Assembly: GCA_003427395.1 (NCBI GenBank)
Contig: BFEA01000032.1
Location: 1,720,931 to 1,784,930 of the forward strand
Direction: 5' to 3'
DNA length: 64,000 nt
From: Chara braunii
Lineage: Eukaryota > Plantae > Charophyceae
How positions within the stretch are numbered: the stretch's first letter is position 1; every line of letters begins with the position of its first letter. Position numbers and translations under genes: made by a program. Below are positions 14,513 through 64,000 of this stretch, piece by piece. The notes beneath the pieces were generated by a model, which worked only from the letters and a program-made list of their open reading frames with translations, ran no database searches and was not told where the DNA came from.

Positions 14513-14577
<65 letters not shown>

Positions 14578-18286: not shown

Positions 18287-18289
18287 TCG

Positions 18290-21200
18290 ATGATCGCGGA
18301 CATTGAGATTGCACACAGAAGAGGATGTGCCCTGTTAGATCCGGGATCGACGTGGTTTTGTATATCAGAGAAGGCAATTCGTAAGTTGCATCTGGGAATG
18401 AAGGTGAAGGATTTATCTAGACATATTACGTCTATCCTGGGTGACAAAAACACGATCACTGTCTCTCAATATATCGATCGTATTAAGTGTTATTTTAGAA
18501 CCAAGGAAGGTAATACACGAGATATCCTTACTAATAGAAACAAACCTACACTTTAATATGATTATGCGAATGGATTGGCACGAGAAAGCCAACCCAGAGG
18601 TCAGGTTCAATGATGGTGTCATACTGAAGAATGAGAAGTCTGAATCACGTGTTATAAAGTTATTATATGTTTAACTCTGACTCTACTCTGTCTTTCTGTT
18701 GTATGAGTTATCCAATTTTCCGCTCGATGGTAATATAAAAGAAGTTGGATCAGGAGGTGATGATGGTGCTTGTCAAGCGAGTAGGTGAGTGTTCCTCATC
18801 CTATCCACCTTCTATCGAAAGACTTTTCTATGAGTATAAGGACTTGCAAACTTAGCCGACGGAAATTACTGAGCATGCTATGAAGCACACAATCGAGATC
18901 ACTCCCGAAAACAAGATTCTCAAAGGTCTCATCTACCGAATGTCTCCAAGAGAACTTGTGAAACTTCGATAGCAGTTGCAAAAACTTACTGACAAGGGAT
19001 GAATTTGTCCTAGCTCATCTCCTTACGGTGCGCATGTCTTATTCGTGCCCAAAAAGGAAGGTGAACTTTGTTTATGTATTGATTATTGCGGGTTGAATTC
19101 CGTCACTACTAAAAACGTGGAACCTCTTCCTCGCATTGACAATCTATTGAATCAGTTGCAAGGGTGCAGATACTTCAGGAAGATTGATCTAAAGTCAGGG
19201 TACCGCCAGATTAAGGTGGCTCCTGAGGATCAACACAAGACGACATTCCGAACCAGGTATAGTCACTACGATTTCGTAGTTATGCCCTCCGGCTTGATCA
19301 ATGCATCTGCAACCTTGCAAAGGTCCGTGAACGAGCTGTTTCGACAATGACTCGATCAATTCGTAGTAGTCTATCTCGATGATATTCTAATGTACACTAA
19401 GACACTGGAAGATAATAAAAAACATCTATGAATAGTCTTGCAGAAGTTGCGAGAAGAAAATTTCAAACTGAATCCAAAGAACTCAGAGTTTGCTAGGCCT
19501 GAAGTTTTGTGCTTATGGCATACAGTAAACGAGGAAGGACTAAGGTCTGAAGAAAAGAAGATTACAACAATCAGAGATTGACCACAACCTAAGACTATAA
19601 CTGAACTAACATCTTTCGTAGGACTTCCTAGCTACTATAGGAAGTTCGTCAGATACTTCTCCTTGATAGCTGCTCCTATGAGAAGATTACTGAAAAAGGA
19701 AAAACCTTCGTTATGGGACAAAGATTGTTAGTCATCGTTTAGAAAGTTGAAACATATTCTAACTCAATACCCTTTCCTAAGGATTGCTGACACTTTTCTT
19801 TCTTTCATAGTCACGACTAACGCAAGTCAGTATGGGATTATGGTTGTGATACAACAAGATGACGGTAAGGGATATGGACATGTGGAGTTTATGTCCGAAA
19901 GACTTCCGTCAGGGAAAGTGACCAACTCCACCTATGAAAGAGAATTATATGCCTTAGTTGCTGCACTAGACACCTGGAAGCACTAATTGTTAGAGAGGCA
20001 TTTCACTGTTTATTCTCACCACTCTACGTTAAAGTGGATCAAGACTCAACCTAAGCTCTCCGACAAGTTGGTAAGGTGGTCCACATTCCTTGATAAATTC
20101 GACTTTGAGGTGAAAATCATCAAAAGAAAGTCTAACGTGGTTGAGGATGCTTTGTCCAGGTGTGTCGATTTCTTTAAAACTATTGTCTCTTATTTCGATA
20201 TTGCAAGTAAATTGAAAGAACGGATCCGCCAGGGTTAAAAGAATGATCCTATTTGGCGTGCTATCATTGAAACTTTGCGAAAAAACCCTGAATTGTTTCT
20301 ATAATATCGAATGACTGATGACTTACTCTTCTTGTTACATAAAATCGAAGAACGATTGTGTGTTCCACACTTAGAACCAATCAAAAGTTCAATTATTGGG
20401 GAATGTCATGATGCCAAAGGTCACTTTGGTTTCAAGAAAACGTACGCTGATGTGCGAGGACGTTTTGAATGGAAAGGAATGAACGAAGATGTACTAATAT
20501 ATGTCCGGACTTGTCTTGTTTGTTAGAGGAACAAGCCCACACTTGAGAATCCGATGAGACCATTGAGACCGCTGCCTATTCTAAGTGAGCCAGGTGTGAG
20601 CCAGTTGAGTCTATCTCTATCGACTTTATGAGTCTCACTAAGAGTCGAAACGACAACAGTCAGGTAATGGTCATTGTCAATAGATTCTCTTAGTATGCTA
20701 TGTTCATTCCTTTGTCTGATGAAGCTAGAACCGAACTCGTCATTCAAAAGTTTCAAATGTGATGGGTCTTTAGGTATGGATTTCACAAAACCATCGTATC
20801 TGATAGAGATGCTCGGTTTACCAGTCAACAATGACAAAAGTTAATGGAAGTCTATGGAACCAGGTTCACCATGCCGTAAGGGAGACATCATGAAACGAAT
20901 GGTCAAACTGAACAAATAAATCGTCTTTGCCAACAACTTTTGCGAATGTATGTCCGGCCTGATCAGATCGATTGGGATGAGAACTTACCTAAAATTGTTA
21001 GTGCTTATAATAATAGTATTCATACTGTTATAGGTAGAATGCCTAACGCACTACATAAAGGATGAAAGCCTAGGCGTCTCATTGATGCATTAATAAGAGA
21101 CTAGATTCACAGGCTACCCCGAGGTACACATGAATTCCCAGTGCTGTATGAAGAGGTCATTAAGAAGCTGAAAGAAAACATACAGAAGTCAAGTTACAAA

Positions 21201-21758
21201 TGATTGAACAAGTTAATAAACATCGTCGTCCTTTACAATTTGAAGAAGATGACTTTGTTTAAGTTAAGTCTAAAGAGTTTTTCTTAGAAAGAAATTTGTC
21301 TAAGAAACTGTTACCTGTCTACTATGTACCCTGGGAAGTTCTCAAAGTGATTGGAGGAGAAGATGAACCTTCCTATCGTATAGCTGTACCTCCATATCTA
21401 AAGACATACTCTTTCTTTCATGTGTCTAATCTGCTACCATATGAAGAAAGTGATAATTTTTTGAATGACCAAGATACTCTTTCTTTCATGTGTCTAATTT
21501 GCCACCATATGAAGAAAGTGATTACTTTTTGAATGACCATCTTCATTTCTACCCTCTATGAATGAAGGTTATGAAGTTGAAAGGATATTGGAACATGATT
21601 ATTTCTCTACAAGTGGCAGAGGACGACCTTGAAAGCAGTACAAGGTAAAGTTCAAGTCTCAACCTCCATCTGAAGCCATATGATTAGGTAAGAAATGACT
21701 TCTACCTATTGCTTCTGACATTGTTGCTGCTTATGAACGTGAGTTAAATGAAGATTAA
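18290..21758 (+). pseudogene. pol: pol remnant: aspartic protease, RT, RNase H, integrase, chromodomain
   Basis: ALLDPGS (PR). FVPKKEGELCLCIDY, KIDLKSGYRQI and YLDDIL (RT). TNASQYG and ERELYA (RH). CHDAKGHFG..CLVC and SDRDARFTS (INT). YEVERILEH..KQYKVKFK (chromodomain, ~21570-21750). Many stops and frameshifts. Confidence 0.95.
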
Positions 21759-24700
21759 TGTAATCCTGCAATGAAACTCGAAAATTGGGCTGACAGGAAT
21801 GTAATAACCCATGTAGTAAGCCTCGCTGAAGCTGAGACCCAGATCGAACACGGAAAAAAAAAACCCAACCAGGACTCAAGGCCTGGACGAGACACAGTTG
21901 ATAAAGTCAATTGTCGAAAATTCCAACAGTCAAAGGCCAAAGGTACCTAACCCGAACCGGAGGTCAAGCACACACACTAGTTTGTATGCAGGTACCCAGA
22001 CAACATCAGGTCCAAGAGTCTGAAAGAAGTCTGAAAGTGTACAATCCGGACCCTCAATTGTGATTCAATCTGGACGACTGTGGGGAAAGTATTTGAGGCC
22101 AGACAACCTCGACGTTCTAGTGTTTCGGATGATCTTTCACTCTTGTTTTGTCCATTCCTTCAGTTCCATGTCAATCGTCACTTTCCATTTTGTGATTTCA
22201 TGCATGAAAGTGAGTTTCACTTACTTTCCCTTCACTTTCTCTCCATTTTTTCACTTGGTAGTAAATCGCACCTTTGGTTTGTGCTCATTTTAGTGTTGTG
22301 GATGATCTTTCACTCTTGTTTTGTCCATTCCTTCACTCCCATGTAACTCACCGGTTTCCATTTTGTGATTTCATGCATGAAACTCACTCTCCCTATACTT
22401 TCTCTTCATTTCTGCACATGGTAGTAAATCGCAACTTTGATTTGTGCTCATTCTAGTGTTTTGGATGATCCTTCAATCTTGTTTTGTCCATTCCTTTACT
22501 CCTATGTGAATTGTCACTTTCCATTCTGTGATTTCACACATGAGAGTTAGTTTCATTCACTCTTCCTTCATTTTCTCTCAATTTCTTCACTTAGTTGTAA
22601 GCCGCAGTTTTTGTTTGTGCTCATTTTAAGTGTTTGGATAATCTTGCACTCACGTCTTGTCAATTTATTGCACTTGGTGGTAGTCCGATTCATCCTTGGT
22701 TGTTCCACTAGTCTTATGCATATGTTTTCCCTTGACAAACTCATGCTTTATCAATTCATTGCACTTGATGANGTGGTAGTCCGATTCATCCTTGGTTGTT
22801 CCACTAGTCTTATGCATATGTTTTCCCTTGACAAACTCATGCTTTATCAATTCATTGCACTTGATGACAGTCTGATTCTTCCCTAGCTGTTCAACTTGTG
22901 ATATGCACGAGTTTTTCCTTGTCACACTCATGTTTTGTCCATTCTTTGCACTTAGTGGTAGTCCGATTCATCCTTGGTTGTTCCACTAGTCTTATGTATG
23001 TGTTTTCCCTTGTCATACTCATGCTCTGTCCATTCTTTGCACTTTGTGACAAATCGATCCTTCCCTAGTTGTTCAACTTGTGATATGCATGAGTTTTTCC
23101 TAGTCACAGTCATGTTTTGTGAATTCCTTTCCCTTGGTGGTAGTCCGATTCATCCTTATTTGTTCCACTAGTTTTAGGCATGTTTTTTTCCTTCTCACAC
23201 TCATGCTTTGTTTATTCCTTGCACTTAATGATAGTGCGATTCTTCTCTAGCTGTTCAACTTGTGATATGCATGTGTTTTCCCTTGTCACACTCATGCTTT
23301 GTCCATTCCTTGCACTTGGTGATAGTCCGATTCTTCCCTAGCTGTTCAACTTGTGTGGAACATGTATTTTCCCTTATCACACTCGTGCTTTGTTCATTCC
23401 TTGCATTTGGTGATAGTATGGTTCCTCCCTAGTTGTTCGACCTGTGAAATGCATGTGTTTTCCCTTGTCACACTCCTGCTTTGTCTGTCTCATGCACTTC
23501 GTGATATTCCGATTATTCCTTAGCTGTTCAATTAGTGACATGCATGTGTTTTTTCTTGTCACACTCATGCTTTGTCTGCTTCTTGCACTTGGTGATAGTC
23601 CGATTCTTCCCAAGCTCTTCAACTTATGATATTCATGTGTTTTCCCTTGTCGCACTCGTGTTTTCTCCATTCCTTGCACTTGGTGATAGTCTGATTTTTC
23701 CTTAGCTGTTTAACTTGTGATATACATCTATTTTCCCTTGTCACACTCTTGTTTTGTCTATTTCTTGGACTTGGTGATAATCCGATTTCTCCCTAGCTAT
23801 TCAACTTGTGTGGAGCATGTGTTTTCCTTGTCAGTCCCATGCTTTGTTCGTTCCTTGCACTTGGTGATAGTCCAATTCCTCCCTTGTTGTTCAACCTGTG
23901 AAAGGCATGTGTTTTCCCTCATTACACTCCTGCTCTGTTTGTCTCCTGCACTTGTTGATAGTCCAATTTTTCCCTAGTTAATCAACCTGACAAATACATG
24001 GCCTAGCGAGACCCCCTTGTTCTAATCAAACGTGGTAAAGAGAAGGAAGGAAAAATGACTGTGTTTTCTTTACTAGGATTATTGTTGCTGTTGTTGTTGT
24101 TTGTAATAATGATGTTGCTGCTGCTAATGCCTAACCAAACCCCTTGCTGGTACTGTTGCTGCTGAAAAGTTGACGACCGACCTCCGGAGCATGAACCTGT
24201 CCGAAAAAAGGGACTAAGGGGTCAATGCGACCGGGGGACACTTCTGGCCAGTTCTGCCAAACCAAGGATATGGGGGTTGATAATTCTCAGACCTCATATC
24301 CTAAACACAAACAGATGACTTGCAAAGCCTGCAGGTCATCTGAGTCCATTTTCCTCCAAAAATGGAAAATGGACTTCACCGAACTGTTCACCTTGAGACC
24401 CGGACGACGCCCGAAACGGGCAAGTAAGGGCAAACGGCAACGGAATCACTTCAAATTTTAGAGGGGTCTCCCATAGGGTACGGACAGAGAGTCCACCACA
24501 TTAGAACTAATTCTAATGTCGTTTGGGGTAGGAAATGCTAAACTGTGTTTTTCGGTTTTCCCTCCTTAGGCTAAAACAACAAAAATCTGTAAAATCTACG
24601 AAATCTACAAATCTGTAGATCTGCAAAGACCGTGTTTTCTTAAATCTGTGTTCTTTGTAAGTCTGGGTTTTTTGCATATCTCTTGTAGGATTAGTTGCTG

Positions 24701-25351
24701 CAAGTCTGAACTTTTGGAAATCCGGAACTAGGGATAACTTAGGGAGGTGGAGCCGGACGCTTAGAGTAGGACGAAATATTTGACTCTTCACACAATTTTC
24801 CTCCTCCATCTTCTTCACCCCCCATCCACCATAGTCAACCACCTTAAACCATCTTCCTCCTCCATCTTCTTCATTCATCCACCATAACCAACCGCCTCAC
24901 ACCATCTTCCTTCTTCATCTTCTTCATTCATCTACTATAGCCGAACCGCCTCCTATCATCTTCCTCCACCATTTTCTTCACCCATCCACCATAGCCAACC
25001 ACCCCATACCATCTCCCTCCTCCATCTTCTTCATCCATCCACCGTAACCAACCACCTTACACCATCTTCCTTCTCCATTTTCTTCATCCATCCACCATAG
25101 CCAACCACCTCACACGATCCTCCTCCTCCATCTTCTTCATCCACCCACTATAGCCGACCACCTCACACCATCATCATCCTCCATCCTCCTCAACCATCCT
25201 CCGTATCAAACCACCTCACACCCCCTTCCTCCTTCATCTTGCTCACCAACCAAAGCCCATGACCAAAGGGGCACAAAGAAGTTAGGTGTAGATAAAGAAA
25301 CTTAGGTAGGACGGTGGGACAAGTAGGGAATAAGTTGATTAGGAGTAGGAC

Positions 25352-25410
<59 letters not shown>

Positions 25411-25752
25411 TCTTCCTCCTTCACCGCCGCCTCCCTCTTCTTGTCGGCGCCCTTTTCCCACATTCTAAAGTTGTGGCCTTACCTTCTCCTCCTCTCCCCT
25501 CTTGGCATATAACTAACTCTTCCCCCACCCCTTGTTACATTGTCAGGGGCCGAACGGTGAAATAAATTTGTCCTCACTTGGCGGATAAAGTGGGCAAGGA
25601 AAGGGTTGTTGGTCCCTTGTGCCGCCAAGAAGGAAAGGAAATGACACTTAAGCAATTGGAAGAAGGCAACTCCCGAAAGAGACTAAAGATAGTTGGTACT
25701 TAAAGCAAGGTCAGTTGACTCAACCATTATCCCGACTGCATGGCTAAGGGAA
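21759..25752 (+). repeat. 3' LTR of element 2, truncated or interrupted at ~25752
   Basis: Starts TGTAATCC immediately after the pol TAA. Similarity to the left copy stops at GCATGGCTAAGGGAA. Confidence 0.7.
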
Positions 25753-27204: not shown

Positions 27205-27567
27205 TGTCGAGCGCATCGGTCCGACACCGCACGTGGCAGCGAGGGACCCTCTCGCGTGCCTACCGACACGCCAGTCCTACCGCCGGTCGCGTGGGCCAAC
27301 CAAGAACGGACTTTCGTTCCCTAACCAATCTCGTAACCTGGTACGGGTCGGTCGGCTACCCCAGCCGCCCACTCAATCAGAAAAATCACACGCGCACCAA
27401 AAAAATCGCGCGCCCTCATACTCCCTACTGGGACAAGGCAGACCTTTGCCCGTGCGCGGACGACCCTCACATTTCCTGCACGGGCACTCAAAATCCGGGT
27501 TAACCGAGCCTTTCTGTCACTTGCAAAAACCAGGGCGGATACCATTGTAAGGGTATTCGCGCCGACC
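27205..27567 (-). repeat. Short 3' terminal repeat (A+B fused)
   Basis: The first 50 bp match 40057-40106 (4 mismatches). The 321 bp from 27247 match 51466-51786 (~95% by eye). Confidence 0.93.
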
Positions 27568-37444: not shown

Positions 37445-39438
37445 CTAGCTGGGCCCTTGACTGGTGGTAGCCTTACTTTGGCCCCTAGTCTGCGCGGCCT
37501 GGGGCACCCTTCTATGTGACGTAGGGGGCTTGAAGGTCATCCCTGACCTAGGACCTGCCCCGACCGTCGCCACGCTTGGACACCCTTGCGGTCCTGATGA
37601 TGACTCCGAGCCGGACACATAGAGCATTACCTCAGGAAGATTCATTTCCCATTCCCGGGCCTCTTCGCACATCACCCTTAGCCGTTTCTGATATCTGCCG
37701 ACCTTTGCAAGCAGGTCCTCCATCCTTTTCAGGATGGTCGAGGATGATTCTCTCACCACCTCCCGTGCCTCGTCGCCGGACTCAACAACTATGGTCTCCT
37801 CCTTTATAGTCCCCGCTTTCAGCCGCTAAGTCACTTCCTCATTTTCATCCATAATCTCCTCGACTCTCACACCCGGGTCTTGCCTTTCCTGCCATATCCT
37901 GGACATTGTTGGGGCCGTTGGAGGCCCTGCTGCTGCTCGCCTGAGGGCTTCCTGCCTGATTCCTCCCGAGGTTTTGGGATCAATATGCTTTCCCTACCGA
38001 TCGTATATGTCCCCATCCATACAGGTGGATATTAGTCCTGCCAGTTCGTCGTCCCGCCGCTGTTGGGAGAATCATACGGTGTGGCCCACCTCGCCACAAT
38101 GCCAACAAGTTGCGTTCCGCCAGTGGAAGCGGGGCCTCCGATACCCTTGGCCCCCTCCCTGGCTGCCTTGGCCACGTTGGTTCTGACCCCCTTGACCATT
38201 CCAGCCTCCTCCACGGCCTCCACCATTTCCTCCTCGCCCCCGGCCGCCCCCTCCTCTACCCCCTTGGCCCCGGCCCCCATTGCCCTGCCCGCCTTGTCCT
38301 TGGCGCCCTCCCCCGGCCACACTGGCTTGCGAGGCCTGTTGGGAGGGCGGCAGTTGAGCCACAGGCTGTTTGATGGGCTCGAATAGGGGACTATGTGTCC
38401 CGTGTGGGCCTGGCTCCCTCCACACGAGACACAGTGGTTACAACTGGGCCAGGGAGCAGACTGACAATGCTGCACCCAGTGCCCACAAGCTGGTGGCGGC
38501 CCCATGTGTGATGGTCCTGCTGGCATCGGTGCGGCCGCGGCGACTGGCGGTGGTGGGGCAATGGCTTGGGGAGCCTGCCCCTTCCCTGACCCATGCCCTC
38601 CCTGCAGCAGATTGCGCTGCTTCCTCTGGGCCTTGGTCAGGACTTGGGAACCCGTCTCCCCTCCGCTGTAGTCTTCTTGCCCAGCCTCCTCATCCACTGC
38701 CCCTGACACCCGGCCTTGGGCCACTAGCACCCCTCTTTTTTGTATCTCTGCTTTGTTATCATACCCCAAGGCCGCCAACACGTCCGTGACGATTCTCTTC
38801 ACCCCTGGGGTTCCGTATGCGGTAGCATCCCTCTCGTTCCTCTTGCGCCTTTGCAGCCTCATTTGGTGTTGCTCCACCTGGTCCAGGCTCCCTTCTTCCC
38901 CTCTCTTGTCAATGGTTGCCCAGGTGAGCCTCTCACTCCCTTCCCCATACTTGGTCAGCTCTGTGGCCTCCGAGCCCGTAAGCAGCTCTGTGGCTTCCTC
39001 AGAAATCCCGTGCACTTTCCTCGCCTTTTTCTTGAACTCGTGCACAAACGCCCCAATAGTAGAGAAATCTTCCTTATTCATGGCCTCCAGGTCTGCCATA
39101 GTCAACAGGCCGTCCCCCAGCCTATACTTCCTTCGCATTAGGTCCCCAAACCTTGTCCAACTGGCACCGGCGCCATCCACGACCTTAGTTACTTCCCGAT
39201 GGTGACTATGCAGGACGTACCTCAGGACCCTCTAGAGCTTGACCTCATCTGACAATCCCACTAGCGCCTGCTCTGTCAGATCCAGCCAGTCAGATACCCG
39301 ATCCCCTTTGAAGTGAAATGTCTCGACCTTTGGGACATTGCTCGACGCCCTCTCGCGCTTGTCCAAGGCATCGATGAGGTCGTCGAGAGTCACAAGCCTC
39401 CTCCCACCATCCGCCATCTCCTCTGGCATTTTGGCCAA
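37445..39438 (-). pseudogene. gag: gag of element 3
   Basis: VPKVETFHFKGDRVSDWLDL capsid start, an RGG-rich tract and a decayed CWHCGEVGH knuckle, located between the PBS and pol. Confidence 0.9.
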
Positions 39439-50000: not shown

Positions 50001-53000
50001 GCCAGATACTTCCGTATGGCAGGTACTCATACCAAACCTGTCACTTTTGTGCTCCAAAGCCAACCACGGTACTTAAAAGCAATTGTATTATGCCAGTTAC
50101 CAACACAAAAGTCGAACTGCGGTCCAGCTGTTGCTCCCAACACCCAGTTACCATGCTTGTTCCGTGTCTGTCCCGGATCAGAATGTCGGGCCGAACCAGA
50201 AATAGCCTCTTGACAATTCTGAGCTGTCAACACTGAACTGAGAATAAATCACTGCGAACCTGAAAGTGATGTAGTGATGTGTATCATACCGATGCCGGAT
50301 ACCGTAGAAAACTGAAAAACCAGGGTAGTANCGAACCTATTCCGGACCTGAAGCAAACTGCNGCCAAGGTTCCAAACCTGGAAAAACTGTCGTAGTGGCC
50401 CCGGNCCTGAGAATAAATCACCGNAGCTGTCCCGAACCTGAAAATAAGTCACCTTAGTGAAACAGCTGTCACCGGGCCTATACCGTACCTGAAGCACGTC
50501 AGACACCGTAGGACCTAGCCACCCCGTATCAACCCTCGTATCCGTACCGCACCAAACGCCATAGTCGACCCAAGGCACCTGTCCATGCGACCCCCGCTCT
50601 CAGAACATCCCAACTGCGATAAGATTAGTAATCAATCAAACCAGCGAAAACGACGCAGGGAGCCTCGGTCATCGGCAGTAGTGAAAACTGATAAAATTCG
50701 GGGAAAATGCTCAATCCGGGGTCAGGGCTGATGGCGGGTGACCAAAGCGAAATTAGCCCAATCTCCCAATAGTCATGGGTTCCCGTCCCTTTTATCGTTT
50801 TTAATAATTCTCCCCTTCCTTAATTCTGTTGTCGGAAATAGTAAATTAATCGTAAGTTCCATAAACTTCAATCCTGGGAAAGTTTAAATAAATGACCGAA
50901 TTCTTTGTGTTTCTTTTGTCTTTTACGATTTTTTTTTTTTTTAATGTTTTTAATTTAATTGTCGGGAAAATAAAATAACAAAGGTATTCCCCCTAGAATT
51001 AAATGCTGTGAAAAAATGAAGAAATTAGGGGATATTATATCTTTTCCTTCTCGCCTACTGGTCCTAACCCCTCTTTCCACCTTTAATTATGGTGCTAAAA
51101 TAGACAAAAATTTGANGCCCCATTTCGCCCCGGTCGTATGCTGCAAAAACGTTGCGGCGAGGTCAACTCCCTTGATGCCTCTCCGCGGCAGGTCAATCCC
51201 GGTCTAACCCTCGGAACGGTCGGAAATGGCAGTCCCTAGACATGCCGAGTCCGGTCACCCATCTCGCCATCTTTGAAGGTTACTCATAAAGCTCAGTGCG
51301 CCCAAAATGAGGGGTGCCCTGAGTTCCCCTAATTTTTGTTGCCTGGTCATACGAGACTTCCATCAAAACACGGATTTGCCCCTGAGCCTAAGTCGCAAAA
51401 CTGCGGATCTCAGGCGGCGCACTCCCTGTGGCCTCCTGACACCGGTCCACCACTTCGCGTCGTGGCCCTCTCGCGTGCCTATCGGCACGCCAGTCCTACC
51501 GTCGGTCGCACGTGCCAACCAAGAACGGACTTTCATTCCCTAACCAATCTCGTAACCTGGTACGGGTCGGTCGGCTACCCCGGCCGCCCACTCAATCAGA
51601 AAAATCACACGTGCGCCAAAAAAATCGCGCGCCCACATACTCCCTACTGGGACAAGGCAGACATTTGCCCGTGCGCGGACGACCCTCACATTTTCCGCAC
51701 GGGCACTCAAAATCCGGGTTAACCGAGCCTTTCTGTCGCTTGCAAAAACCAGGGCGGATACCCTTGTAAGGGTATTCCCGCCGACATCGCTGTAAGACGG
51801 AAGGACGTCAGGAGCACCGAGGAAAGACGTGGGACGGGGCTGTACCGGCATGACAAAGTGTCGGGGACCACGCGGGACCAGGGGACGGCGTGGTGCCGAC
51901 AGGGCAGAGTACCAAGAACCGCGTGAGACCGAGGGAAAGGACGCAGTGTAGGCGGGCCGAAGTGTCGGGGACCGCGTGGGCCTAGATAAAATGTTGGCAC
52001 TAGCGGAACCACTAGCAGGACGGGTATCGACAGTATAAAGTGTCGGGAGCCGTCGACGGGGGCTGAAGGTCGGAGCAATCGGCAGAATAATCGACAAGGA
52101 GCCCAAGGAGGAGGGTGCGCGAGAGCGGGTTGTCAACCGGAATGCGCCGGGAAAATAGGGGGGGAACTAGGAACAATAAGAGAAAGAGGAGAAGTCGGGT
52201 GCTGATGAAAGTTGCCAACGGAACGGAGAAGACGGGCGTGAGACGATAAAGACGGAGGGTACCTGGAGCGACCCAGGGGGATCATGGATCAGACGCAACG
52301 ACAACAAAAATAAAATAGCCTGACGCCTGGTGGACGGGAGCGCTCGGGCCAGGAGTCCGGATGACAATAATGAGTGTCGCCGCGACAAGCGCCGACGGGA
52401 GGTGCCAAGGGGAAAAAGAGGAGGGAACAGTAGTAATGAGGAGGCCGACCGGCGGTCCGGGTTATTCGGGACCAGCCAGGTCGAGAGCAACGAACCGGGC
52501 AAGTTCCGAGGGCTCCACGTGGAGAAAAGGCTGGCCGGGGAAAATCGGAGAAAGGGGGTTTCAAACGGGAAGCGGCGACAGCAAAAAGGAGCTTCCTTGA
52601 ACCTTGGGGGTACCACTGCTGCAGTCCGAGGTGTGACAGCGATATGCCGGCTGCAAAATCAGACCTTGGGTAGGGTCCCACAGCTAGAAAGAGGAGACAT
52701 AGCTGTTAAACACTAGTCCCAACAGAGATAAAAGAGGGAGGAGAGGAAAAGGGGAGAAAAAGGGGGAGAATGAGACAAAGGAGGATGATTGGGTGGAGGA
52801 AAAACTGCCGCCAGGTTGGGACTGCAGCGGTAGGGACTGGCAGGTCTCAATAATGACCTCATCCCTCCTAGATCCTAGGCGGGCAGTCCGGATTGCAGAA
52901 GATAAGGTCCTTGGGGCATTATCTCTGCAATATCTGAATTTAAGCAGCAAAAATAAGGAAAAATGCTAATGTGATTTGGTCGGCTCATTTTTGGGCCTTA

Positions 53001-54178
53001 GATCTGATATCTGATCTTACGGAGGAGGAGATCTAGCTATTTTTTGTGGGCTGACACAAAACGGCTAGCTCCGGAATGAGTTGGCAGCAAAATGGAGGGA
53101 AAACGAAAAGAGGAACAAGACAAAACTGCGAATTTGGCGCAAGGTCTGGGCCAGGTACATCAAAAAAATTGAAAGTGGGGGTAAAAGACTCAAATTTGAA
53201 GCAAGGGGGGCTTGGGAGTAGCTCGGAATGACGAAAGTCATGGATCTCAGCCAAATCCAAGGATGAGATTTGTGCCGCCACTTGGGAAAATGTAACGGCC
53301 TGCTCACAAGAGGCCTAGACTAAAATATAAAAAAAAAAAACGAAAAACGGGCCTTTAGGACCTCAAATTTTGGTAAAGGCTGCATTTTGGGGTAGTGGTA
53401 CCCAAAAGGCAGCACTTTTTGAGGAGAAAAGAGGCCGGGGTAGGCCAAGGGGTAGTCCGAGAGGATACCAGCCTCACGGACTGCATGTACTTGGCCAAAA
53501 TGAGGCCCAGGTACCCCCGAGGAGACCAAAACCGGAATTTTGGCCTTTGGGGTACCTCGCTCCACCTAGAGGCACTTGGAGGGGCCTAAAGGTTGGGCGG
53601 TGCACCTGTTTCAGCCTATATAAGCTAGAGGTGCAGGCTGCAACTCTCATTTGAGCATGAGAGGTGCCCATGATGCCCAAATGAGTCCAGGAAAGAGTCC
53701 AAGTGAGAGAGAAGCAAGGGAGTGAGGGTCGGAGCTAGCCTGAAGCCTGACTATGGTGGTAAGGTTGATAAAGCAGACCTAGAGGCTAGGAGGGAGCAAG
53801 GAGAGTGGTCCGCCATAGCCCTCATGTGGTGAAGTAGGAGGAAAGGCTGAAAGGGGTCCCCATAGTCCTTCTAGAGGGAAGGACTCCACAGCCTTAGAGG
53901 TAGGAGTCCGCCATAGCTAGAGGAGAGGTGTGAGAGAAGGAGAGGATTTGGGGAGGTGGGAGAGCTATGCTCAGGGAGATAGAACCAAGCCTAGAAGACC
54001 ATTGACAAAAAAACCAGTGTGAGGTGAGTGAAAGAGGACGAAGTTTCTCCCTTCCCTCCTTCGTTTTCTTCTTCTTCTTCTTCTTCTTTTTTCTCTCTTT
54101 CCTCCTTTTCTCTTTCTCGTTCTTTTACCTCTCTTCCTCCCCTTCTTCTTCTCCCCCTTCCTCATCTTCTTCCTCCCT

Positions 54179-54545
54179 TCAAACTTTGAGTTTTCACGGA
54201 TTTGGGAGTCTGGGTAAGTTGCGATTCACCTTGTGAAAGTTCCGTGATGTTTCCCCCAGTGTTGATGCTTCAAACTTTGAGTTTTCACTGATTTGGGAGT
54301 GTGGGTAAGTTGCGATTCACCTTGTGAAAGTTCCGTGATGTTTCCCTTTGTGTTGATGCTTCAAACTTTAAGTTTTCACTGATTTGGGAGCCTGGGTAAG
54401 TTGCGATTCACCTTGTGAAAGTTCAGTGATATTTCCCCTAGTGTTGATGCTTCAAATTTTGAGTTTTTACTGATTTGGGAGCTGGGGTGAGTTGCGCTTC
54501 ACTTCGGGATACTTCGGTGATGTTTCCTCCTCATAGGATGCTTCA
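54179..54545. repeat. 91-bp tandem repeat (4 units)
   Basis: AAACTTT(G)AGTTTTCA at 54181, 54272, 54363 and 54454. Confidence 0.93.
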
Positions 54546-54998
54546 AATCTTACCTTTATGTTGTCCTTGATGAGTGTGTGTGTGGCGCNNNNNNNNNNNN
54601 NNNNNNNNNNNNNNNNNNNNNNNNNNNNNNNNNNNNNNNNNNNNNNNNNNNNNNNNNNNNNNNNNNNNNNNNNNNNNNNNNNNNNNNNNNNNNNNNNNNN
54701 NNNNNNNNNNNNNNNNNNNNNNNNNNNNNNNNNNNNNNNNNNNNNNNNNNNNNNNNNNNNNNNNNNNNNNNNNNNNNNNNNNNNNNNNNNNNNNNNNNNN
54801 NNNNNNNNNNNNNNNNNNNNNNNNNNNNNNNNNNNNNNNNNNNNNNNNNNNNNNNNNNNNNNNNNNNNNNNNNNNNNNNNNNNNNNNNNNNNNNNNNNNN
54901 NNNNNNNNNNNNNNNNNNNNNNNNNNNNNNNNNNNNNNNNNNNNNNNNNNNNNNNNNNNNNNNNNNNNNNNNNNNNNNNNNNNNNNNNNNNNNNNNNN

Positions 54999-56050
54999 TA
55001 GGCTGCTGTTCATCCGGTAGTACTTCGTTGTTCAACCCCTGGAATAGGGTGCTGTTCACATTGTTCTTTTGTTGTTCTATGTGCATGGGTAGGTTGCTGT
55101 TCACCCGGTAGTACTTCGATGTTAAACCCCCGCGGTAGTGTGATGTTCACATTGTTCTTTTGCTATTCTATATGCATGGGTAGGCTGTTGTTCATCCGAT
55201 AGTACTTCGTTGTTCAACCCCCGGGGCGGGGTGCCGTTCACATTGTTCCTTTGTTGTTCTATGTGCATGGGTAGGTTGTTGTTCACCAGGTAGTACTTTG
55301 TTGTTCAGTCTCCGGGGTAGGGTGCTGTTCACATTGTTCTATTGTTGTTCTATGTGCATGGGTAGGTTGTTGTTCACCCGGTAGTACTTCGCTGATCAAC
55401 CCCCGCGGCAGGGTGTTGTTCACATTGTTCTTTTGTTGTTCTATGTGCATGGGTAGACTGCTGTTCATCCGGTAGTACTTCGCTGTTCAACCCCCGGGGT
55501 AGGGTGCTGTTCACATTGTTCTTCTGTTGTTCTATGTGCATGGGTAGGTTGTTGTTCACCCGGTGGTGCTCCGCTGTTCAACCCCCGCGGTGGGGTGCTG
55601 TTNNNNNNNNNNNNNNNNNNNNNNNNNNNNNNNNNNNNNNNNNNNNNNNNNNNNNNNNNNNNNNNNNNNNNNNNNNNNNNNNNNNNNNNNNNNNNNNNNN
55701 NNNNNNNNNNNNNNNNNNNNNNNNNNNNNNNNNNNNNNNNNNNNNNNNNNNNNNNNNNNNNNNNNNNNNNNNNNNNNNNNNNNNNNNNNNNNNNNNNNNN
55801 NNCCCCGCGGTGGGGTGTTGTTCACATTATGAGTCGGTGTTCTATGTACATGAGTAGGGTGCTGTTCACATTGTTCTTCTGTTGTTCTATGTGCATGCGT
55901 AGGTTGCTGTTAACCCGGTGATGCCCCGCTGTTCGACTCCCGCGGTGAGGTGCTCTCCACATTGTCAGTTTGCTGTTCTATGTACATGAGTAGGGGGCTG
56001 CCTACACAGTGGTGCTTCACTGTTCAATCTCCGGGTAGGGTGTTAATCAC
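54999..56050. repeat. Second 91-bp tandem repeat (gapped)
   Basis: TACTTCG at 55021, 55112, 55203, 55294, 55385 and 55476. Confidence 0.93.
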
Positions 56051-56229: not shown

Positions 56230-57920
56230 AGCCATCACCCACACCCATCCACCATAACCGGCCGCTCCTAACCCTTCTTCCTCCTTCATCACCCACACCC
56301 ATCCTCCATAGCCGAACACCTTCAACCCTCCTTCCCCCTCCATCACTCACGTCCATCCCCCATAGCCGGACCTCCCCAACCCTTTTTCTTTCTCCATCAC
56401 TCACACCCATCCACCATAGCCGGCCTCCCCCAACCCTTCTTCCTCCTCCATCACCCACATCCATCCACCATAGTCAACAACCCCCAACCCTTCTCCCTCC
56501 TCCGTCACCCACATCCGTCCACCATAGCCGACCTCCCCCAACCCTTCTTCCTCCTCCGTCACCCGCACCCGTCCGCCGTAGCGGACCTCCCTCAACCCTT
56601 CTTCCTCCTCCATCACCCACAACCGTCCACCATAGCCGACCTCCCTCAACCCTTCTCCCTCCTCCATCACCCACACCCGACCACCATAACCGACCTCCCT
56701 CAACTCTTCTTCCCCCTCCATCACTCACGTCCATCCCCCATAGTCTGACCTCCCCAACCCTTCTTCTTCCTCCATCACTCACACCCGTCCACCATAGCCA
56801 ACAACCCCCAACCCTTCTCCCTCCTCCATCACCCACACCCGTCCACCATAGCCAACAACCCCCAACCCTTCTCCCTCCTCCATCACCCACACCCGTCCAC
56901 CATAGCCAACCACCCCCAACCCTTCTCCCTCCTCCATCACCCACACCCGTCCACCATAGCCAGCAACCCCCAAACCTTCTCCCTCCTCCATCACCCACAC
57001 CCGACCACCATAACCGACCTCCCTCAACCCTTCTTCCTCCTCCATCACCCACGCCCGTCCACCATGGCCGACCACCCCCGACCTTTCTTTCTCCTCCGTC
57101 ACCCACACCCGTCCGCCATAGCCAACCTCCCTCAACCCTTCTTCCTCCTCTGTCACCCACACCCGTCTGCCATAGCCAACCTCCCCTTCTTCCTCCTCCT
57201 TCACCCACACCCGTCTGCCATAGGCGACCACCCCCAACCCTCCTTCCTCCTCCATCGCCCACACCCGTCCGCCATAGCCGACCACCCCCAACCCTTCTTC
57301 CTCCTCCATCACCCACACCCGACCACTATAGCCGACCTCCCTCAACCCTTCTTCCTCCTCCATCACCCATATCCGACCACCATAACCGACCTCCCTCAAC
57401 CCTTCTTCCTCCTCCATCACCCACGCCTGTCCACCATGGCCGACCACCCCTGACCCTTCTTCCTCGTCCGTCACCCACACCCGTCCGCCATAGCCAACCT
57501 CCCTCAATTCTTCTTCCTCCTCCATCACCCACATGCGTCCGCCATAGCCGACCACCCCCAACCCTCCTTCCTCCTCCATCACCCACACCCATCCGCCATA
57601 GCCGACCTCCCTCAACCCTTCTTCTTCCTCCATCACCCGCGCCTGTCCACCATGGCCGACCACCCCCAACCCTTCTTCCTCCTCCATCACCCACGCCCGT
57701 CCTCCATAGTCAACCACCCCCAACCCTTCTTCCTCCTCCATCACCCACACCACTCCGCCATAGCCGACCACCCCCAACCCTTCTTCCTCCTCCATCGTCC
57801 ACACCCGTCCGCCATAGTCAACCTCCCTCAACCCTTCTTCCTCCTCCATCACTCACGCCCGTCCGTCATAGCCGGCCATCCTTAATCCTTCTTCCTCCTC
57901 CCCCGCCCGCTTCCGTCCAT
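56230..57920. repeat. 48-bp C-rich minisatellite (~35 units) that creates a 635-aa Pro-rich ORF
   Basis: CCATCACCCACACCCGTCCACCATAGCCGACCTCCCTCAACCCTTCTTCCTCCT-type units; followed by (CT)n at ~58035-58121, as in the element 2 LTRs. Confidence 0.95.
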
Positions 57921-58030
57921 CCGAAAAAAATCTTAGGGGGTCGCAAGGGGGGCGCGCGGGGCCCGAGTAGGATCGGATAGGGTAAGTTAATAAGCAAGGT
58001 CGATTAGGATGTGAAGCTTCTTGTTTTTTT

Positions 58031-58122
<92 letters not shown>

Positions 58123-59370
58123 CGTCTTCCTCCATTTCTCCAAAATTCTTTAACCCTTAACCCTTCCGACACCCCTTCCCCTCCATAGCATGTGACTAAC
58201 CTCTACCCTNAAATTCTTTAACCCTTAACCCTTCCGACACCCCTTCCCCTCCATAGCATGTGACTAACCTCTACCCTCACGTGTTACATTGCCAGGGGAC
58301 GAACGAGAAGGAACTTGGTCCTCACTTGGTGGAAAGCGAGGGTGAAGAAAGGGTTGTCGGTCCCTTGTGCCACCAAGAAGGAAAGGATACGAGGCTATTA
58401 AGAACAATTGCGAAAGCGGAAAGAGGTTCAGATTTTGGACAAGGTCAGTTTGACTCAACCATCCTCCCGGACTGCATGACTAAGGCGATTGGGTGGCTTG
58501 CTTGCGGGAAAAGGGAAGGGAACTCTTGAGGGGAGTTGGAAGGCAAAGGGGACTTAGGATTGCGGAAGGGGCGATGTGTTGACCCCAACGAGGATCGTAC
58601 TTGGTCATTTGTCTTATGTGGTTTTGCGCAGGTGAGTAGCTTGGGACGAGTCGGACGGGGCTGGATCCACGGATGAGGACTAAGACGGAAGATTGGCTAA
58701 GGGAAAGGACTTGGACCCGGCCTAAGCCGTGAATACGGGTCGAGTTGTGGCCGGCGCTTGGGCGGGTGTTTGATGCATGGACTCGGCTTGTGTGGGGGTG
58801 GCGTGGAATGGCTCTCTCTCATGTGCAATGCGACGCTTGAAAAAACTAAGGGCGGTCTTGGGTAGGTGGATGTGATGTTAGTGGCTCTCGCAAAAACAAT
58901 ATACCGGCTCGGGGTCTGCGCGTCATCGCCTCACCCCAAGGATGTCGTCGGGGATGGCTTGAGCTACTCAGCTTAGTGAAAAGGTGCCTGGCCCAATGGA
59001 TGACGCTTGGCCTACGCACGGAAAGAAGACGAGACCCCAATGAACCTCCTGGACTGCTTGCGTATTGGAAGGAGCAATTTCCTGGTCAGACCTAATTGAA
59101 TCAAGAAAACGTCACGATTGCCCAAAGAGCTACCATCTTAACGCGAGAGCGGAGCTACATCCCCCAATGTAAAGCCCTCTAGTAAAAGGCCCACTCCCAT
59201 CCATCTCAAAGCACTAGGTGGGGGTGCCCCTGGGACGAACGACCCGCGCCCAGAGCGTGAGCGTGGGCGGGTCGAGCCACCGTGCCCAGAGCGTGAGCGT
59301 GGGCGGGTCGAGCCAAATGGGACCCGCAGCCGAGGCTTGAAAATCCTTCAGGGTAAGGCTCCGACAAAAA

Positions 59371-59388
59371 TGGTGGAGGTGTCGGGTA
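59371..59388 (+). promoter_or_regulatory. Putative primer-binding site, tRNA-Ala-like
   Basis: TGGTGGAGGTGTCGGGTA, 4 nt after CCGACA; resembles the complement of the tRNA-Ala 3' end (TGGTGGAGATGCGGGGTA). Confidence 0.7.
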
Positions 59389-61064
59389 ATGGGTTAAACT
59401 GACCCATACGGTCTCGAGGGGGGCGCCCGACACATGACTGCGGACATAAACATGAAGAGAAGGAATGAGGACTTGTGTATGCTCTATCCCTTGAGTGAAT
59501 CAGATTTGAGGGTGGCTGGGCGCATAGCAAGGTCAGGCCTCGAGGAAGAACATGCATGGTTGCACTTTTGATCAGCCATCTCCTTTGGAGATGACTCTAG
59601 TCCTCCTTCCCTTGAACTGATGTTCGTAAGGCCAGGGAAGCCTTGGGCGAGCCGCAGATCGACCCTTCCTCTTCATGCGAAAGAAAGGTTTCGGTTACCC
59701 GGTATGCGATTGGGATTCCGGGCTAAGCTCGGTTCTGATGAAAATCCCGCGGCGGAGTAATCCGACCGACACGGATGCTCTCCTTCTTTTTCTTCGGAGC
59801 CCAGCGGTCTCCATGCACCCCACTTAATGCCTGAAGGAACTTCATATGAACAAAAAGGGTAATCGAGAAGGAACAATCCTGCCCTATGAACGGATACACA
59901 AGCAAAGATAAGGGAAAGAAGGGAGTTGGTAGACTCAAAAAAAAATAAAAATTAGCTCACCCTTGAAGATGCTCACAAGAAGGAATCAGGCACTGTGTAT
60001 CGATGTTAGGGGAGAGTGGCACGCACTGTCCCGAGAGAAAAATTGTGAGCTAAGGGTAGGAAGCGTTGGGTGCACCAGGGGAAAGGCACTTGTGTTATGT
60101 GTGTCCCACTTGAGACTTGTGATTGCATGATTGGAATTTCGAGCGTCCTGCCATTTGGAAGGAAATGATCGGTTTGCACCAGCTGGTGCAGGTTGCAAAA
60201 AGTCGTTCTCTTTGAAGTTCGCCGGGTTCCGTGCGCGAGGGTCGGGCTACCAGGCTGTCAGGCAGAGGTTGGTCTCGTCGGCTGGTTAGCATGGCTCGAT
60301 GACCTTGCCCAGGCGGGGTGCGAAACACCTTCAGACGGGGCGGCTACTTGTCGGCAGACGGCAGGGGGACCACTGAGTATGGGATAAGGAGGGAGCCTCG
60401 GAGGCGATTAGTAGCTTCTCGTAGCTTGGTTTGGGATAGGTTGATTCTTATCGGACCGATGAAAGTGAATGCCTGGACGGCCGACTCCAATGGCCTCACC
60501 GAGATGTGCGGGGTGATTCCCGAGATTAACGGTGGGTACACGAGTGACAAGTCGGGATGGGGTATTCTGGGTAAAGAGGAAAGGGCGAATGCCTTGCCGA
60601 GACCTGGGTACCGCGCTCGCGACGGTTGAGCTGTGCTGGAGGTATGGGCTAAAACCCTGCCGATAGTAACAGTGGAGAGACCATTCCTGGGAAGAAGGTC
60701 GATGAGGAAATGACCGACCCTTGTGCGACGTTTGCCTGAGTTTTGTTTTTTGTGCCCTCCTCTGTAAAGTTGCTTGATGAATGTTGGAAGGGGAACTAAG
60801 CTTCTAGTCTATTCTCGACCCCTGCCTAAGTCTGCACGAGTGAGAGAACATGAGGGAGAGGCTGGATAGGAGTCGGAAGAAAGTGGAACTAAGAAAAGAA
60901 GGAATGCGAGCCGCATGTGATTGGGGGTATGGTAGGACAATGGTACCTGGGAATGGATAAGAGAGGTTAGGGAGACCTGGATGAGGGGAAAAAGCAAACC
61001 ATCCCACCATGAGGGGCCGTGTGGTGCTCTCATGTGAAAAACAGGACAGGCGCCGGGAAACAAG

Positions 61065-61868
61065 ATGGCGTGACGGTTGTCGTCTCCTGTCTACTCTAGT
61101 GGTCCGGAAATGCCCATAGAAGTAAGGGATGGGGTATCTGTTGTTCTCCCGGAAAAAGGGACATGGACCGACCTAGAACCAACCTATGAAACCGTGATGC
61201 TGGACAAGAGGGACGCGTTCCTCTGGATAGAGACAATCTGGATTAAGGTCAGCCTGACAAGACTTTCACCGAGCTTGATGGACCTAGAATTCCGGGGAAC
61301 AGTGGAAGCTCGAGGATGGATCTACCTATCTCAAGAGATGGAAAACGCAGTGGTAGTGGGACTAGTGTTGGGCACGGCACCGGACCAGCTGTTTGGGCAA
61401 GCGGAACGGGAAGTGGTATGGGCAGCATGTCAGCGGGCAGAAATGGAGATGGAAAGGATGGAGGTGCGAGTGGAACTCGGGGACTGGAAAAATATGCGAC
61501 GCCCCCTTAGGACAATGAGATGTGTGCTACCCCCATTCCTGGTGGATGCAGTCTTTGAAACCAGGGGTAGATTGGAGCGGATATGCCGGTCGATGACGCG
61601 CCTGAGGTTGTACCAAGGTGCTAGGCAAGACTTCTTTAAGCTATCGGTGGAAGCGGGGCCGTTCGAAGGAAACTGGGCAGAAGAATTAGCTGAGATATTG
61701 AACCTCCTCAGCGCGGACGAAGTCTTTGTTCCCAGCCCAGTGCATTGACAAATAGTTTACCGAAACATGGCAGCGGGGGAAACCTTCTTGGAAGGGGTGA
61801 AAGAGATGTTCCTAGACGAGGAGGAGGATTTCAGTGATGAGGAGGACGGAGACGAGATAGAGGACTGA
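61065..61868 (+). pseudogene. Unknown-function paralog A (~267 aa with acidic tail; two premature TGA stops)
   Basis: ATG GCG TGA CGG at 61065 is in frame with the 223-aa ORF. Reading through the stop at 61746 gives QIVYRNMAAGETFLEG..DEEEDFSDEED. Shares motifs with B, C and D. Confidence 0.75.
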
Positions 61869-61932
61869 GACTTTTGAAGGGGGAGGCTTACCTGGGGAAA
61901 ATGGGTTGTCGGCTATGTGCAGGTAGGAAACG

Positions 61933-62678
61933 ATGGCCCGTGATTCGAATTATGGGACTGCACATGAGAACCAAGATGAACCGGAAGGGGAGTAGAGATG
62001 TCGATACCGCCGAGCAATGAATGGAAAGGGACCACATGTGATTGGCGGGGGTATGAGATTGTGTCGGAGCTATCGTATCTTTGAATAGAGCATATCTGGA
62101 ATCCAGTGAGGGAAGAGGAAGGATGGGAAGAGATTGCGGAAGGAAGGGTGGAGTCAGTTGGGACGATCGTTCTCTCGAAACAGGGTTGGCACCTGTTCTG
62201 TACGACGCTTGCGGCAGGACAAAACCCGATGTGGCTTTTAGGGGACGCTGAGGCAAGGGCTCGGCAGGCGGGGGAAAACTTTGCTAACAAAGGTTGGGAT
62301 ACGGTTAGCAGTAGAGTCGTGATAGGAGGATGGAAGGAATTCAAACCGCCCGGTGCCCGAATCAAGACCTGGGTACCTAAGTTCGTGGCAGACTGGTTTG
62401 GGGGTTTTGATCATGTAACAGAGGTAGCCGACACGATGGAGCGAATACACGTGAATTGCACATGGCTGGCAGGGGAATTTTATAGGATGTCCTTGAAATA
62501 CGGACCCTTCCACGACGATAGAGCCCGGGAGGTCCTCATTATTCTGAACATCGAAAGGAATGACCGGCAGGAGGTGGCCCCGGAAACTAGGGAGGCCATA
62601 ATCCGCCGTGAGGTAGCAACAACACCTTGCTATGTGGATGATGTATTCAAACTGTTTGAAGTACTGTGGTTCGACTAA
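61933..62678 (+). pseudogene. Unknown-function paralog B (one frameshift, one stop)
   Basis: MARDSN.. then GVEMSIPP..SYL*IEHIW aligns with GVSVVLPE..AFLWIETIW of paralog A; GPF motif present. Confidence 0.75.
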
Positions 62679-62800
62679 GCGCAGGGAAGTTGTGGAGCCA
62701 GATAAATATGGCAAAAATTGCTAAGATAAGGGAATGGGATGTTTGGCCATTGTAGGGTTCAGCGCGGATCGCGAGCTGGGAGATCAAAGGCGAGTGCGCG

Positions 62801-63574
62801 ATGGCACGAAGAAGGACGTTCCTTGAGGAGCGCCCCTTGGGCATTGAACCGCCTAGGGAAGTACCGGGTGGGATAGAGGTCAGTTTGCCGGCAACAGGCG
62901 AGGGATGGCACCAGGTGGCAGATTGGGTCGGGATCGAGCTTGCGAAAAATATAGTTTATTTGGTGACGAAAGTTGAGTTACGTGCGGCTGAGAATGGGGA
63001 ATGGAACCCGGACCCACGGGGGCGCGTGCGTGCAGAGGGGCGACCGTATGTGTTAGAAAACGAATGGAGGGAGTTCGGACTTCGGCTGGCATCAGGAGAA
63101 GACCCGTTGAGCATGTTTGAAGGGGCATGGCAGTTAGTATGGTAAGTGGGATTTGAGTTCGCAGATCCGGGGGTTGACGATGTGACAGCAGACCTTAGGG
63201 TAGCCATGGTCGGGAGTTTTTAATTGCCTAGTGAAAACGTACGAATGAGGCTGTCGCCCTTCCTGCTGGAAAAACTGGGTGGGTTGGAACTTGTTAGACA
63301 AGCAGTAGCCGACCTCGCAAGCCTGACGTATGAAGAGGCAGTGGTACATCGAGAATACTATTGGGCCTTCTTAGAAATGGGGCCGTTTAATGGAGAGCAG
63401 AAGTACAAGGTGCTGCGCATCCTGCGTTCTGTGTTTAGTACCAGGCCGAGGGTTCCTGTCGTGGGAAGTGAGGTCCTGTGGGGTGCCGTCCGGCGGGAAA
63501 TAAACCAAGGGATGGCGTACGTAGATGATCTGTACCGATTGTATGAGCAGATGGAGGAGGGAACAGGTCGGTAA
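62801..63574 (+). pseudogene. Unknown-function paralog C (two in-frame stops)
   Basis: ORFs 62801-63145 and 63224-63574 share a frame; motifs GGIEVSLPA, GRVRAEG, GPFNG and RRE..YVDD. Confidence 0.78.
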
Positions 63575-63707
63575 TAGGGCCAAAAAGAGGGGAAAGAAGC
63601 GCCAGGCTAGGGATCGGAAGGTTTTTCGGGCGAAAAAATTGAAGACCAAGTGGAATAAATAAACTCGCGTGCTGTTTAAAACTGTGCAGGGGACTTCTAA
63701 GTCGGAA

Positions 63708-64000
63708 ATGGCGATGAGACGCGCCCGGACGCCGCAACGACCCATGCACCCTCGGCCATCCACGGAAAACGGAGGTGGATGGGAGGTGTCGCTCCCAGCA
63801 AGCTACATGATTCAAGGATTGAATACCGAGTGGAGAGTCGTGACCCTGGGAAGAGGTCAGGCATTCATGATGGTGGAATGTTTGTGGGATGGTATGAGAA
63901 TTAACAGGGGACCAGGGGACGATCTGTACACCGATCTAAGGGTGACGGGAAATGTATACCTACCAGAACTCGGGTGGCACATGCTAGGAACAGAATTGGC
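63708..64000 (+). CDS. Unknown-function paralog D (runs off the window end)
   Basis: MAMRRART..GGGWEVSLPAS..VTGNVYLPELGWHML, open to the window end; matches GGIEVSLPA of C and VGTIVLSKQGWHLF of B. Confidence 0.75.
   Translation, partial: MAMRRARTPQRPMHPRPSTENGGGWEVSLPASYMIQGLNTEWRVVTLGRGQAFMMVECLWDGMRINRGPGDDLYTDLRVTGNVYLPELGWHMLGTEL

Follow-up and report, generated by a model that had tools for sequence, protein, structure and literature searches.

A Ty3/gypsy retrotransposon of Chara braunii with four paralogous genes ahead of a predicted gag-pol: candidate splice sites, relatives and selection

How could gag be translated from a retrotransposon transcript on which more than 130 ATGs precede it? 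The question is raised by the end of a 64,000-nucleotide stretch of DNA from Chara braunii (contig BFEA01000032.1, positions 1,720,931 to 1,784,930 of the forward strand; hereafter the window), where a long terminal repeat (LTR) and a primer-binding site (PBS)-like sequence are followed by four open reading frames (ORFs), named cassettes A to D. On balance, this end of the window appears to hold a multi-copy Ty3/gypsy LTR retrotransposon in a decayed state, with four paralogous genes 5' of gag-pol, and gag-pol is predicted to lie beyond the window, 3' of D. Choice among splice acceptors is a testable answer to the question. Other copies were examined through gene-model proteins, one contig from a second copy (L001) and RNA read and contig sets. 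Our analysis revealed that the cassette array is a real, multi-copy, selected form of Ty3/gypsy elements with 5' extra ORFs.

Four paralogous genes behind a long terminal repeat

An earlier note on this DNA had described four same-strand ORFs starting with ATGGC, each with its ATG the first after a YAG/G site (the slash marks the splice boundary). All of these coordinates hold, as does its description of the copy as decayed (Table 1). It had also described the four proteins as mutually homologous with little similarity of their DNA. Pairwise protein alignments of A to D gave z scores of 6.7 to 36.3 against 1000 shuffles, with all six pairs above 1000 of 1000 shuffles, and DNA scores were at chance. 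A profile of the family run over the window found no cassette elsewhere in it. The natural end of A is at 61877, and relatives of A terminate in DWDF. The acidic tail of A (61815-61877) with this terminal DWDF is kept in most relatives, and it may be a short binding motif.

Table 1. Positions of the features of the cassette element in the window, and domains of two linked gene models (numbered along the model)
Feature	Position	Strand	Details
5' LTR, homology-supported part	56232..59366	+	54-bp array, TC microsatellite, conserved blocks, end ...CCGACA
Predicted splice donor CAG/GTGAGT	58629..58637	+	inside the LTR, 5' of the PBS
PBS-like site TGGTGGAGGTGTCGGG	59371..59386	+	4 nt past the LTR end
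Segment Z	60187..60669	+	acceptor-like TGCAG/G 60191; ORF-like 60291-60669, about 125 codons; frameshift near 60595
Cassette A	61040..61877	+	acceptor AACAG/G 61044; ORF 61065-61877; acidic tail; three internal TGA
Cassette B	61918..62678	+	acceptor TGCAG/G 61922; ORF 61933-62678; frameshift in first codons; three TGA
Cassette C	62751..63574	+	acceptor TGTAG/G 62755; ORF 62801-63574; two internal TAA
Cassette D	63685..64000	+	acceptor TGCAG/G 63689; ORF from 63708 off the window end
P0055	reverse transcriptase (RT) 360-484, RNase H 507-607, integrase 820-982		Pfam, linked gene model
P0070			gag, protease, RNase H; Pfam, linked gene model

Sequence searches returned one protein for the C query and 13 for the A query (65-89% identity for the latter), all of them Chara braunii gene models. 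When 1.84 billion representatives were searched with a profile, 61 proteins matched, and the total came to 72 distinct relatives. Names were checked for 34 of the 72, and 33 of these are Chara braunii gene models; the remaining one, P0046, is an intact B-like protein (36% identity) from a Logan assembly, for which near-length relatives were sought and none found. Many matches are chimeric gene models, so that genomic order can be read from them. The order Z-A-B-C-D, Z being a further segment 5' of A, is retained in all 19 multi-cassette models. In 49 of the 72 relatives, gag or pol of the same family is found 3' of the last cassette; one relative has it only upstream, and gag follows D in several models. 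Analysis of the linked models with Pfam revealed RT, RNase H and integrase in the gypsy order protease-RT-RNase H-integrase. Chromodomains are absent from these models except for P0048, a chimera in which the chromodomain is part of other pieces, and the models may end early. The linked pol is 37-49% like that of the minus-strand element at 32.5-36.1 kb of the window and 24-31% like that of the chromodomain element at 10.9-25.7 kb.

The LTR at 56232..59366 is about 70% identical to both LTRs of the 10.9-25.7 kb gypsy element, and its 3' end is homologous to GTCGTACA of that element. It may extend beyond 56232, through the 91-bp arrays at 54177-55911. The PBS-like site is a candidate that we take to be tRNA-Ala-like. 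The terminal CA of the LTR (59365-59366) and the TGG at 59371 give the LTR-CA/TGG-PBS arrangement of Ty3/gypsy elements, for which the rule is a TGG PBS within 0-5 bp of the LTR end (PMC6317226). A self-priming site was sought for either LTR and none was found. In another copy the LTR-PBS-leader junction (59333-59553) is spanned by a contig, record 12 of set X5, and an X4 contig spans B to C in a further instance of another copy. These bridging contigs and the 49 models bear out the linkage of the ORFs to the LTR, PBS and downstream gag-pol; the earlier note had named ORFs unlinked to this LTR elsewhere as a refutation.

The resemblance of this LTR to that of a chromovirus-like element, with the linked pol coming from another lineage, could be read to mean that the ORFs were captured from a host or virus, or are an unrelated insertion, and ride passively behind this LTR. 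This explanation, to which we give hardly any weight, is largely refuted by the selection described below, by the conserved order and by the linkage, together with an LTR-PBS-leader junction seen in other copies. Comparison of the chromodomain gypsy element (10900-25750) with the cassette element, with LTRs about 70% alike and pol of different lineages, suggests LTR exchange between distant families.

A tree was built from 52 domain rows, taken from the longer instances with shorter fragments excluded. The four cassette types, and a further type E, each fell on one side of a branch with support of 95-100, and the 17 C-type rows formed a single branch; the joins between cassette types are long branches and unsure. 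As each type has its own branch, the duplications predate the spread of the subfamilies. The distant fifth type E (P0073-P0076) is attached to other gag types. The gag of P0076 shows 40% similarity to the minus-strand element of the window (38821-38985), an element in which no cassette was matched.

The second DNA copy, L001, covers Z, A and most of B. Comparison of the window with L001 gave a ratio of nonsynonymous to synonymous substitution rates (dN/dS) of 0.13 for A (244 codons, confidence interval (CI) 0.07-0.19) and 0.10 for B (219 codons, CI 0.06-0.18) in this single pair of copies; the earlier note had proposed the ratio as a check, with values near 1 counting against its proposal. The divergence of A and B shows an excess at third positions, and shifted frames yield dN/dS of 0.8-3.1. 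A and B are under purifying selection.

Predicted splice sites and expression of the cassettes

We consider it probable that transcripts initiated in the LTR carry a short non-coding exon 1 ending at the donor (58631) and that each is spliced to a single acceptor. Transcription would start in the LTR, and the non-coding exon would be joined to A, B, C, D or, likely, gag, one of these per mRNA. Splicing would put an ATG in strong context near the 5' end of the mRNA and would remove the PBS from every spliced mRNA, so that only unspliced RNA could be reverse-transcribed. A fuller version, in which at least five proteins including gag-pol are obtained by acceptor choice from the single LTR donor and the paralogs form an expandable host-conflict array of a new protein family, possibly with a new fold, is conceivable at somewhat less than even chance.

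Analysis of the donor revealed that CAGGTGAGT occurs exactly three times in the window (15053, 15226 and 58629), always at homologous LTR positions, which agrees with the conservation in the related LTR noticed earlier. A 16-nt block around the 58629 donor is identical to the related LTR at 15226. The related chromovirus-like element has the same donor, and a strong pyrimidine-rich AG lies directly 5' of its gag-region frame. In its 5' LTR (14990-15300) the donor region is duplicated, 173 nt apart; the element is without a tRNA-type PBS, and the pyrimidine-rich AG lies at 16120-16210. TGTTGACCCCA and a U-rich tract precede each CAG/GTGAGT (58577-58637 region), and 58631 could serve as both acceptor and donor, that is, as a recursive site.

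For the acceptors, a loose rule (YAG/G within 50 nt and no ATG between) was satisfied by 26 of the 123 ATGs in 59400-64000 and is therefore weak alone. TGYAG/G is the plant acceptor consensus. This stricter motif, picked after the sites were known, was found within 50 nt before three of the four cassette ATGs and none of the 119 others (Fisher p 1.3e-5). The ATGGC start was found at all four cassette ATGs and at eight of the 119 others (p 5e-5), and the RnnATGG context at all four as against 37 of 123 in the background. The only further TGYAG/G instance is at 60191, and 3' of it lies a fifth ORF-like stretch, Z, absent from the earlier note. No stable RNA structure was found at the acceptors (z -1.1 to +1.3).

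Comparison between copies showed that acceptors A and B are kept in L001, together with the 10-nt leader of B. The 60 nt around acceptor A are 90% identical between copies against 50% in the adjacent spacer, and the 27 nt around acceptor B are 81% identical against 54%. The D acceptor region (63661-63692) is kept in an X7 contig, the upstream part of which does not align. Gene models enter the cassettes through leaders of matching length: D through a 6-residue leader (18 nt) in P0019, P0030 and P0032, C through a 15-residue leader in P0032 that matches its 45-nt leader, and A through a 7-residue leader in P0006 and P0027, joined from Z. Furthermore, 15 models enter gag through a leader of 3-4 residues before a MA[ST]xE-type start, from differing upstream cassettes, which suggests that gag has an acceptor of its own. 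Conservation of the acceptors across copies was thus found in L001, the X7 contig and the leaders of gene models.

On unspliced RNA 66 to 133 ATGs would precede the cassettes, 66 of them before A, which makes scanning implausible. The spacers between cassettes are only 55, 122 and 133 nt long, which makes separate promoters cramped. Termination-reinitiation on polycistronic RNA occurs in caulimoviruses. An unspliced polycistronic RNA translated in this way, or internal promoters, with the AG motifs incidental, would suit the short spacers and the exclusively unspliced cover in the RNA data reported below. The TGYAG/G enrichment, the acceptors kept while spacers diverge, the 66 ATGs ahead of A and the donor block kept between distant LTR families all argue against it, and we regard it as improbable. 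Trans-splicing of a spliced leader, which is not known from green plants, was set aside as a cis donor exists.

Several observations weigh against the splicing account and its host-conflict extension. RNA was searched in raw runs X1-X3 (6-13% of each run) and five contig sets, eight runs in total. No junction from 58631 or into any acceptor was found in X1-X3, a test of low power, and none of the 13 joints in the five contig sets starts at 58631. Contigs of X4 and X5 run unspliced through the donor, and X4 also through acceptor C. The gene models are predictions, so that their junctions indicate conserved sites and not use. Further donor-like sites are present at 58441, 60578 and 60642, with acceptor-like features 5' of 58631, and a frame begun by the ATG at 58616 has no stop before the donor and would run across the cassettes in a different frame. 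The dN/dS values come from one pair of decayed copies and from A and B only, and they give no sign of positive selection, although an arms race might be expected to cause it. The interpretation of the earlier note has stood in part: the paralog array, its linkage to an LTR element, the purifying selection and the conserved acceptors are supported. Splicing from one LTR donor to each acceptor, for which no 58631 junction was found in the eight low-power runs, and the anti-silencing function are predictions.

Only 18 reads came from X1 and 23 from X3, both raw oligo-dT runs in which the cassette family looks silent. In X2, 2620 reads from both strands (57:43) covered all 30 bins at about 10-80x without a splice-type joint; this cover looks like DNA or pre-mRNA. 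Over 58215-64000 it is about 100 times that of the sister runs X1 and X3, and DNA carry-over, intronic copies or derepression could be behind the excess.

The further donor-like sites lead to another explanation, in which several donors (58441, 58631, 60578 or 60642) are used and some of the cassettes are fused to Z as a common coding exon. The Z donor-like sites are kept in L001, P0006 and P0027 join Z to A through the 7-residue leader, and the reading frame stays open through the leaders of A, C and D. Against this, the leader of B has an in-frame stop in both copies, which means that B must have a start of its own; the signal of selection on Z falls short of significance, and the supporting gene models are predictions. 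We consider this explanation, too, an improbable one. Under the single-donor account, the three exon-1 ATGs checked are without a G at +4. A donor-like AAG/GTCAGT is present at 58441-58449 in all three LTR copies.

Protein properties and possible roles

The earlier note had called the proteins an unrecognised family, and no Pfam or fold assignment was obtained in this study. A Pfam scan gave nothing for A to D (E up to 5) or for 14 relatives (E up to 1). A sequence search of the PDB with the family profile gave one match at E 0.99, tblastn of phage records gave no match and Rfam gave one sub-threshold match. The model of P0033, a B-type relative (pLDDT 81, pTM 0.70), contains a meander of three strands together with helices and a fourth strand, followed by a helical domain; the A model is poor (pLDDT 58). 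Foldseek found no match for the A and B models at E<=0.001, and VIA-align of the whole models found none at Z>=8 (best 4.8 for A and 5.6-5.8 for B), an absence that is not proof of a new fold. An Atlas feature match of A to GAF (score 0.94, 144 of 256 features shared) was not repeated for B, and Pfam matched no GAF domain in A to D or the 14 relatives.

No transmembrane segment was found in eight sequences (maximum 19-residue hydropathy 0.69-1.19). A, B and C are acidic (net charge -23, -11 and -10) and D is basic (+13), and the N-termini of C and D are Arg-rich. Most of the residues that the first three cassettes have in common are G, P or hydrophobic, together with E31, S60, E178 and R204; the prevalence of such residues at conserved positions is more in keeping with a binding module than with an enzyme. 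From the analogy to VANC and the variable cassette number, we tentatively prefer the suggestion that the paralogs could be soluble, non-enzymatic protein-binding adaptors for different host partners, acting against silencing or RNA surveillance.

VANDAL VANC proteins are transposon-encoded accessory proteins acting on host silencing (PMC13547354). They come from DNA transposons and are traced to a MAIN-related protein, a match not seen among the cassettes in the Pfam scans. The Cer1 element encodes CERV, a lineage-specific accessory protein of an LTR retrotransposon that is made from spliced mRNA and needed for export of genome RNA (PMC10309623). CERV of C. elegans is a single gene made from gag exons and a 3' ORF, unlike a paralog array. 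The CERV precedent raises the alternative that, within the same architecture, the proteins work like Rev or CERV and either export the unspliced genome RNA or protect it, as this RNA has to get past a strong donor and five or more acceptors. The Arg-rich N-termini of C and D and the basic D agree with such a role. However, three of the proteins (A, B and C) are acidic, the same donor is present in the neighbouring element, which has no cassettes, and four paralogs exceed what export needs. We consider the export role unlikely, though less so than the other rivals.

Strong purifying selection with deep divergence would also suit subunits of one complex, and the paralogs might be structural parts of a particle, shell or cell-to-cell movement complex. 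In both models the N-terminal half is weakly chimallin-like (Z 4.3 and 5.4, root-mean-square deviation about 4, 102 aligned), although a Z under 8 may reflect a common arrangement. Moreover, X4 and X5 contigs appear to join Z to D without A to C, from which the full cassette set may be dispensable. We consider a structural role rather improbable. These contigs hold two joints from 60679 (the Z end) to the D leader at 63691 and 63706, with undetermined letters between. Splicing to D was rejected as their explanation, as about 117 unaligned nt are implied, near the 115-nt spacer before the D acceptor; they appear to be a subfamily variant without A to C in which D follows about 117 nt after Z.

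Complex retroviruses use one major donor and many acceptors, and the expression logic predicted for the cassette element is alike. However, their accessory genes are mutually unrelated and lie after pol, whereas here paralogs lie ahead of gag, the donor lies in the LTR ahead of the PBS and no env-like segment is seen. Env-like ORFs carry a transmembrane segment and lie after pol and before the 3' LTR, unlike the cassettes. In simple retroviruses gag is made from unspliced RNA (PMC10309623). Athila, Bagy2 and bdelloid LTR elements express extra ORFs through spliced messages (PMC7264820; PMC5408684), and extra ORFs are mostly located after pol (PMC7264820). CERV, VANC and the bdelloid ORF3s are single, unrelated accessory genes (PMC10309623, PMC13547354, PMC5408684).

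Ogre/Tat elements likewise have long LTRs and extra ORFs of unrecognised function in the internal region, one or two in Ogre (PMC6431247), whereas four mutually paralogous ORFs, each with its own acceptor motif, were found here. The plant mobile domain PF10536, present in 57% of Ogre elements and MAIN-related in VANC, had no Pfam match in the cassettes. Ogre/Tat elements have an additional aRH domain, which in Ogre/Retand sits between RNase H and integrase. Among 58 scanned models, some of which carry RNase H and integrase on a single chain, RT_RNaseH and RT_RNaseH_2 were the only RNase H families found, although chimeric models could omit an aRH. A survey has defined an eORF-5'F class and found plant extra ORFs heterogeneous, and the words Klebsormidium and charophyte are absent from its main text (PMC6317226). 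Our literature search found no description of the array or of Chara LTR accessory genes; the Chara genome paper, a 2011 survey of extra ORFs and the supplements of PMC6317226 may bear on this.

Plant LTR elements commonly carry extra ORFs, mostly of unclear function; those described are heterogeneous and number one or two in each element (PMC6317226, PMC6431247, PMC7264820). With four selected genes of ancient duplication standing in order before gag, the present element is a case of a retrotransposon that evolves a gene family of its own, in the manner of large viruses. An unrecognised, confidently folding protein family in a close relative of land plants offers a handle on transposon-host conflict, and dozens of 'hypothetical' Chara gene models are explained as element chimeras.

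Segment Z and neighbouring features

Segment Z has an open frame of 105 amino acids in L001 and was found in 11 gene models, and its ATG is not kept in L001. Its dN/dS between window and L001 is 0.39-0.47, with a CI up to 1. Z was tried as a fifth paralog and rejected, with z at most 1.7 and a family profile score below that of shuffles. Of its donor-like sites, 60578 and 60642, the former is intact in L001. Synonymous divergence is low over Z (60399-60900; L001 117-765), and the non-coding 60670-60900 is 81% identical between copies, a value above that at synonymous positions in A and B. Both copies have long open antisense frames in the same stretch (60399-60900; L001 117-765), and no frame was significant for antisense coding in 60344-60900 (best p 0.051). 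The gene model P0054 fuses the 54-bp LTR repeat, in opposite orientation, to Z and C, and probably reflects a neighbouring inverted element.

Three further observations concern the surroundings of the element. A 67-nt exact duplication at 58143-58277, around a single N at 58210, is likely an artefact of an assembly join. A 320-nt direct repeat of 95% identity (27247-27566 and 51466-51785) brackets about 24 kb including the minus-strand gypsy element. Finally, 5' of the 91-bp arrays, the region 53616-54030 contains a TATA-like motif followed by GAG/GTGAGT at 54022 and a pyrimidine tract, and may be another promoter and first exon.

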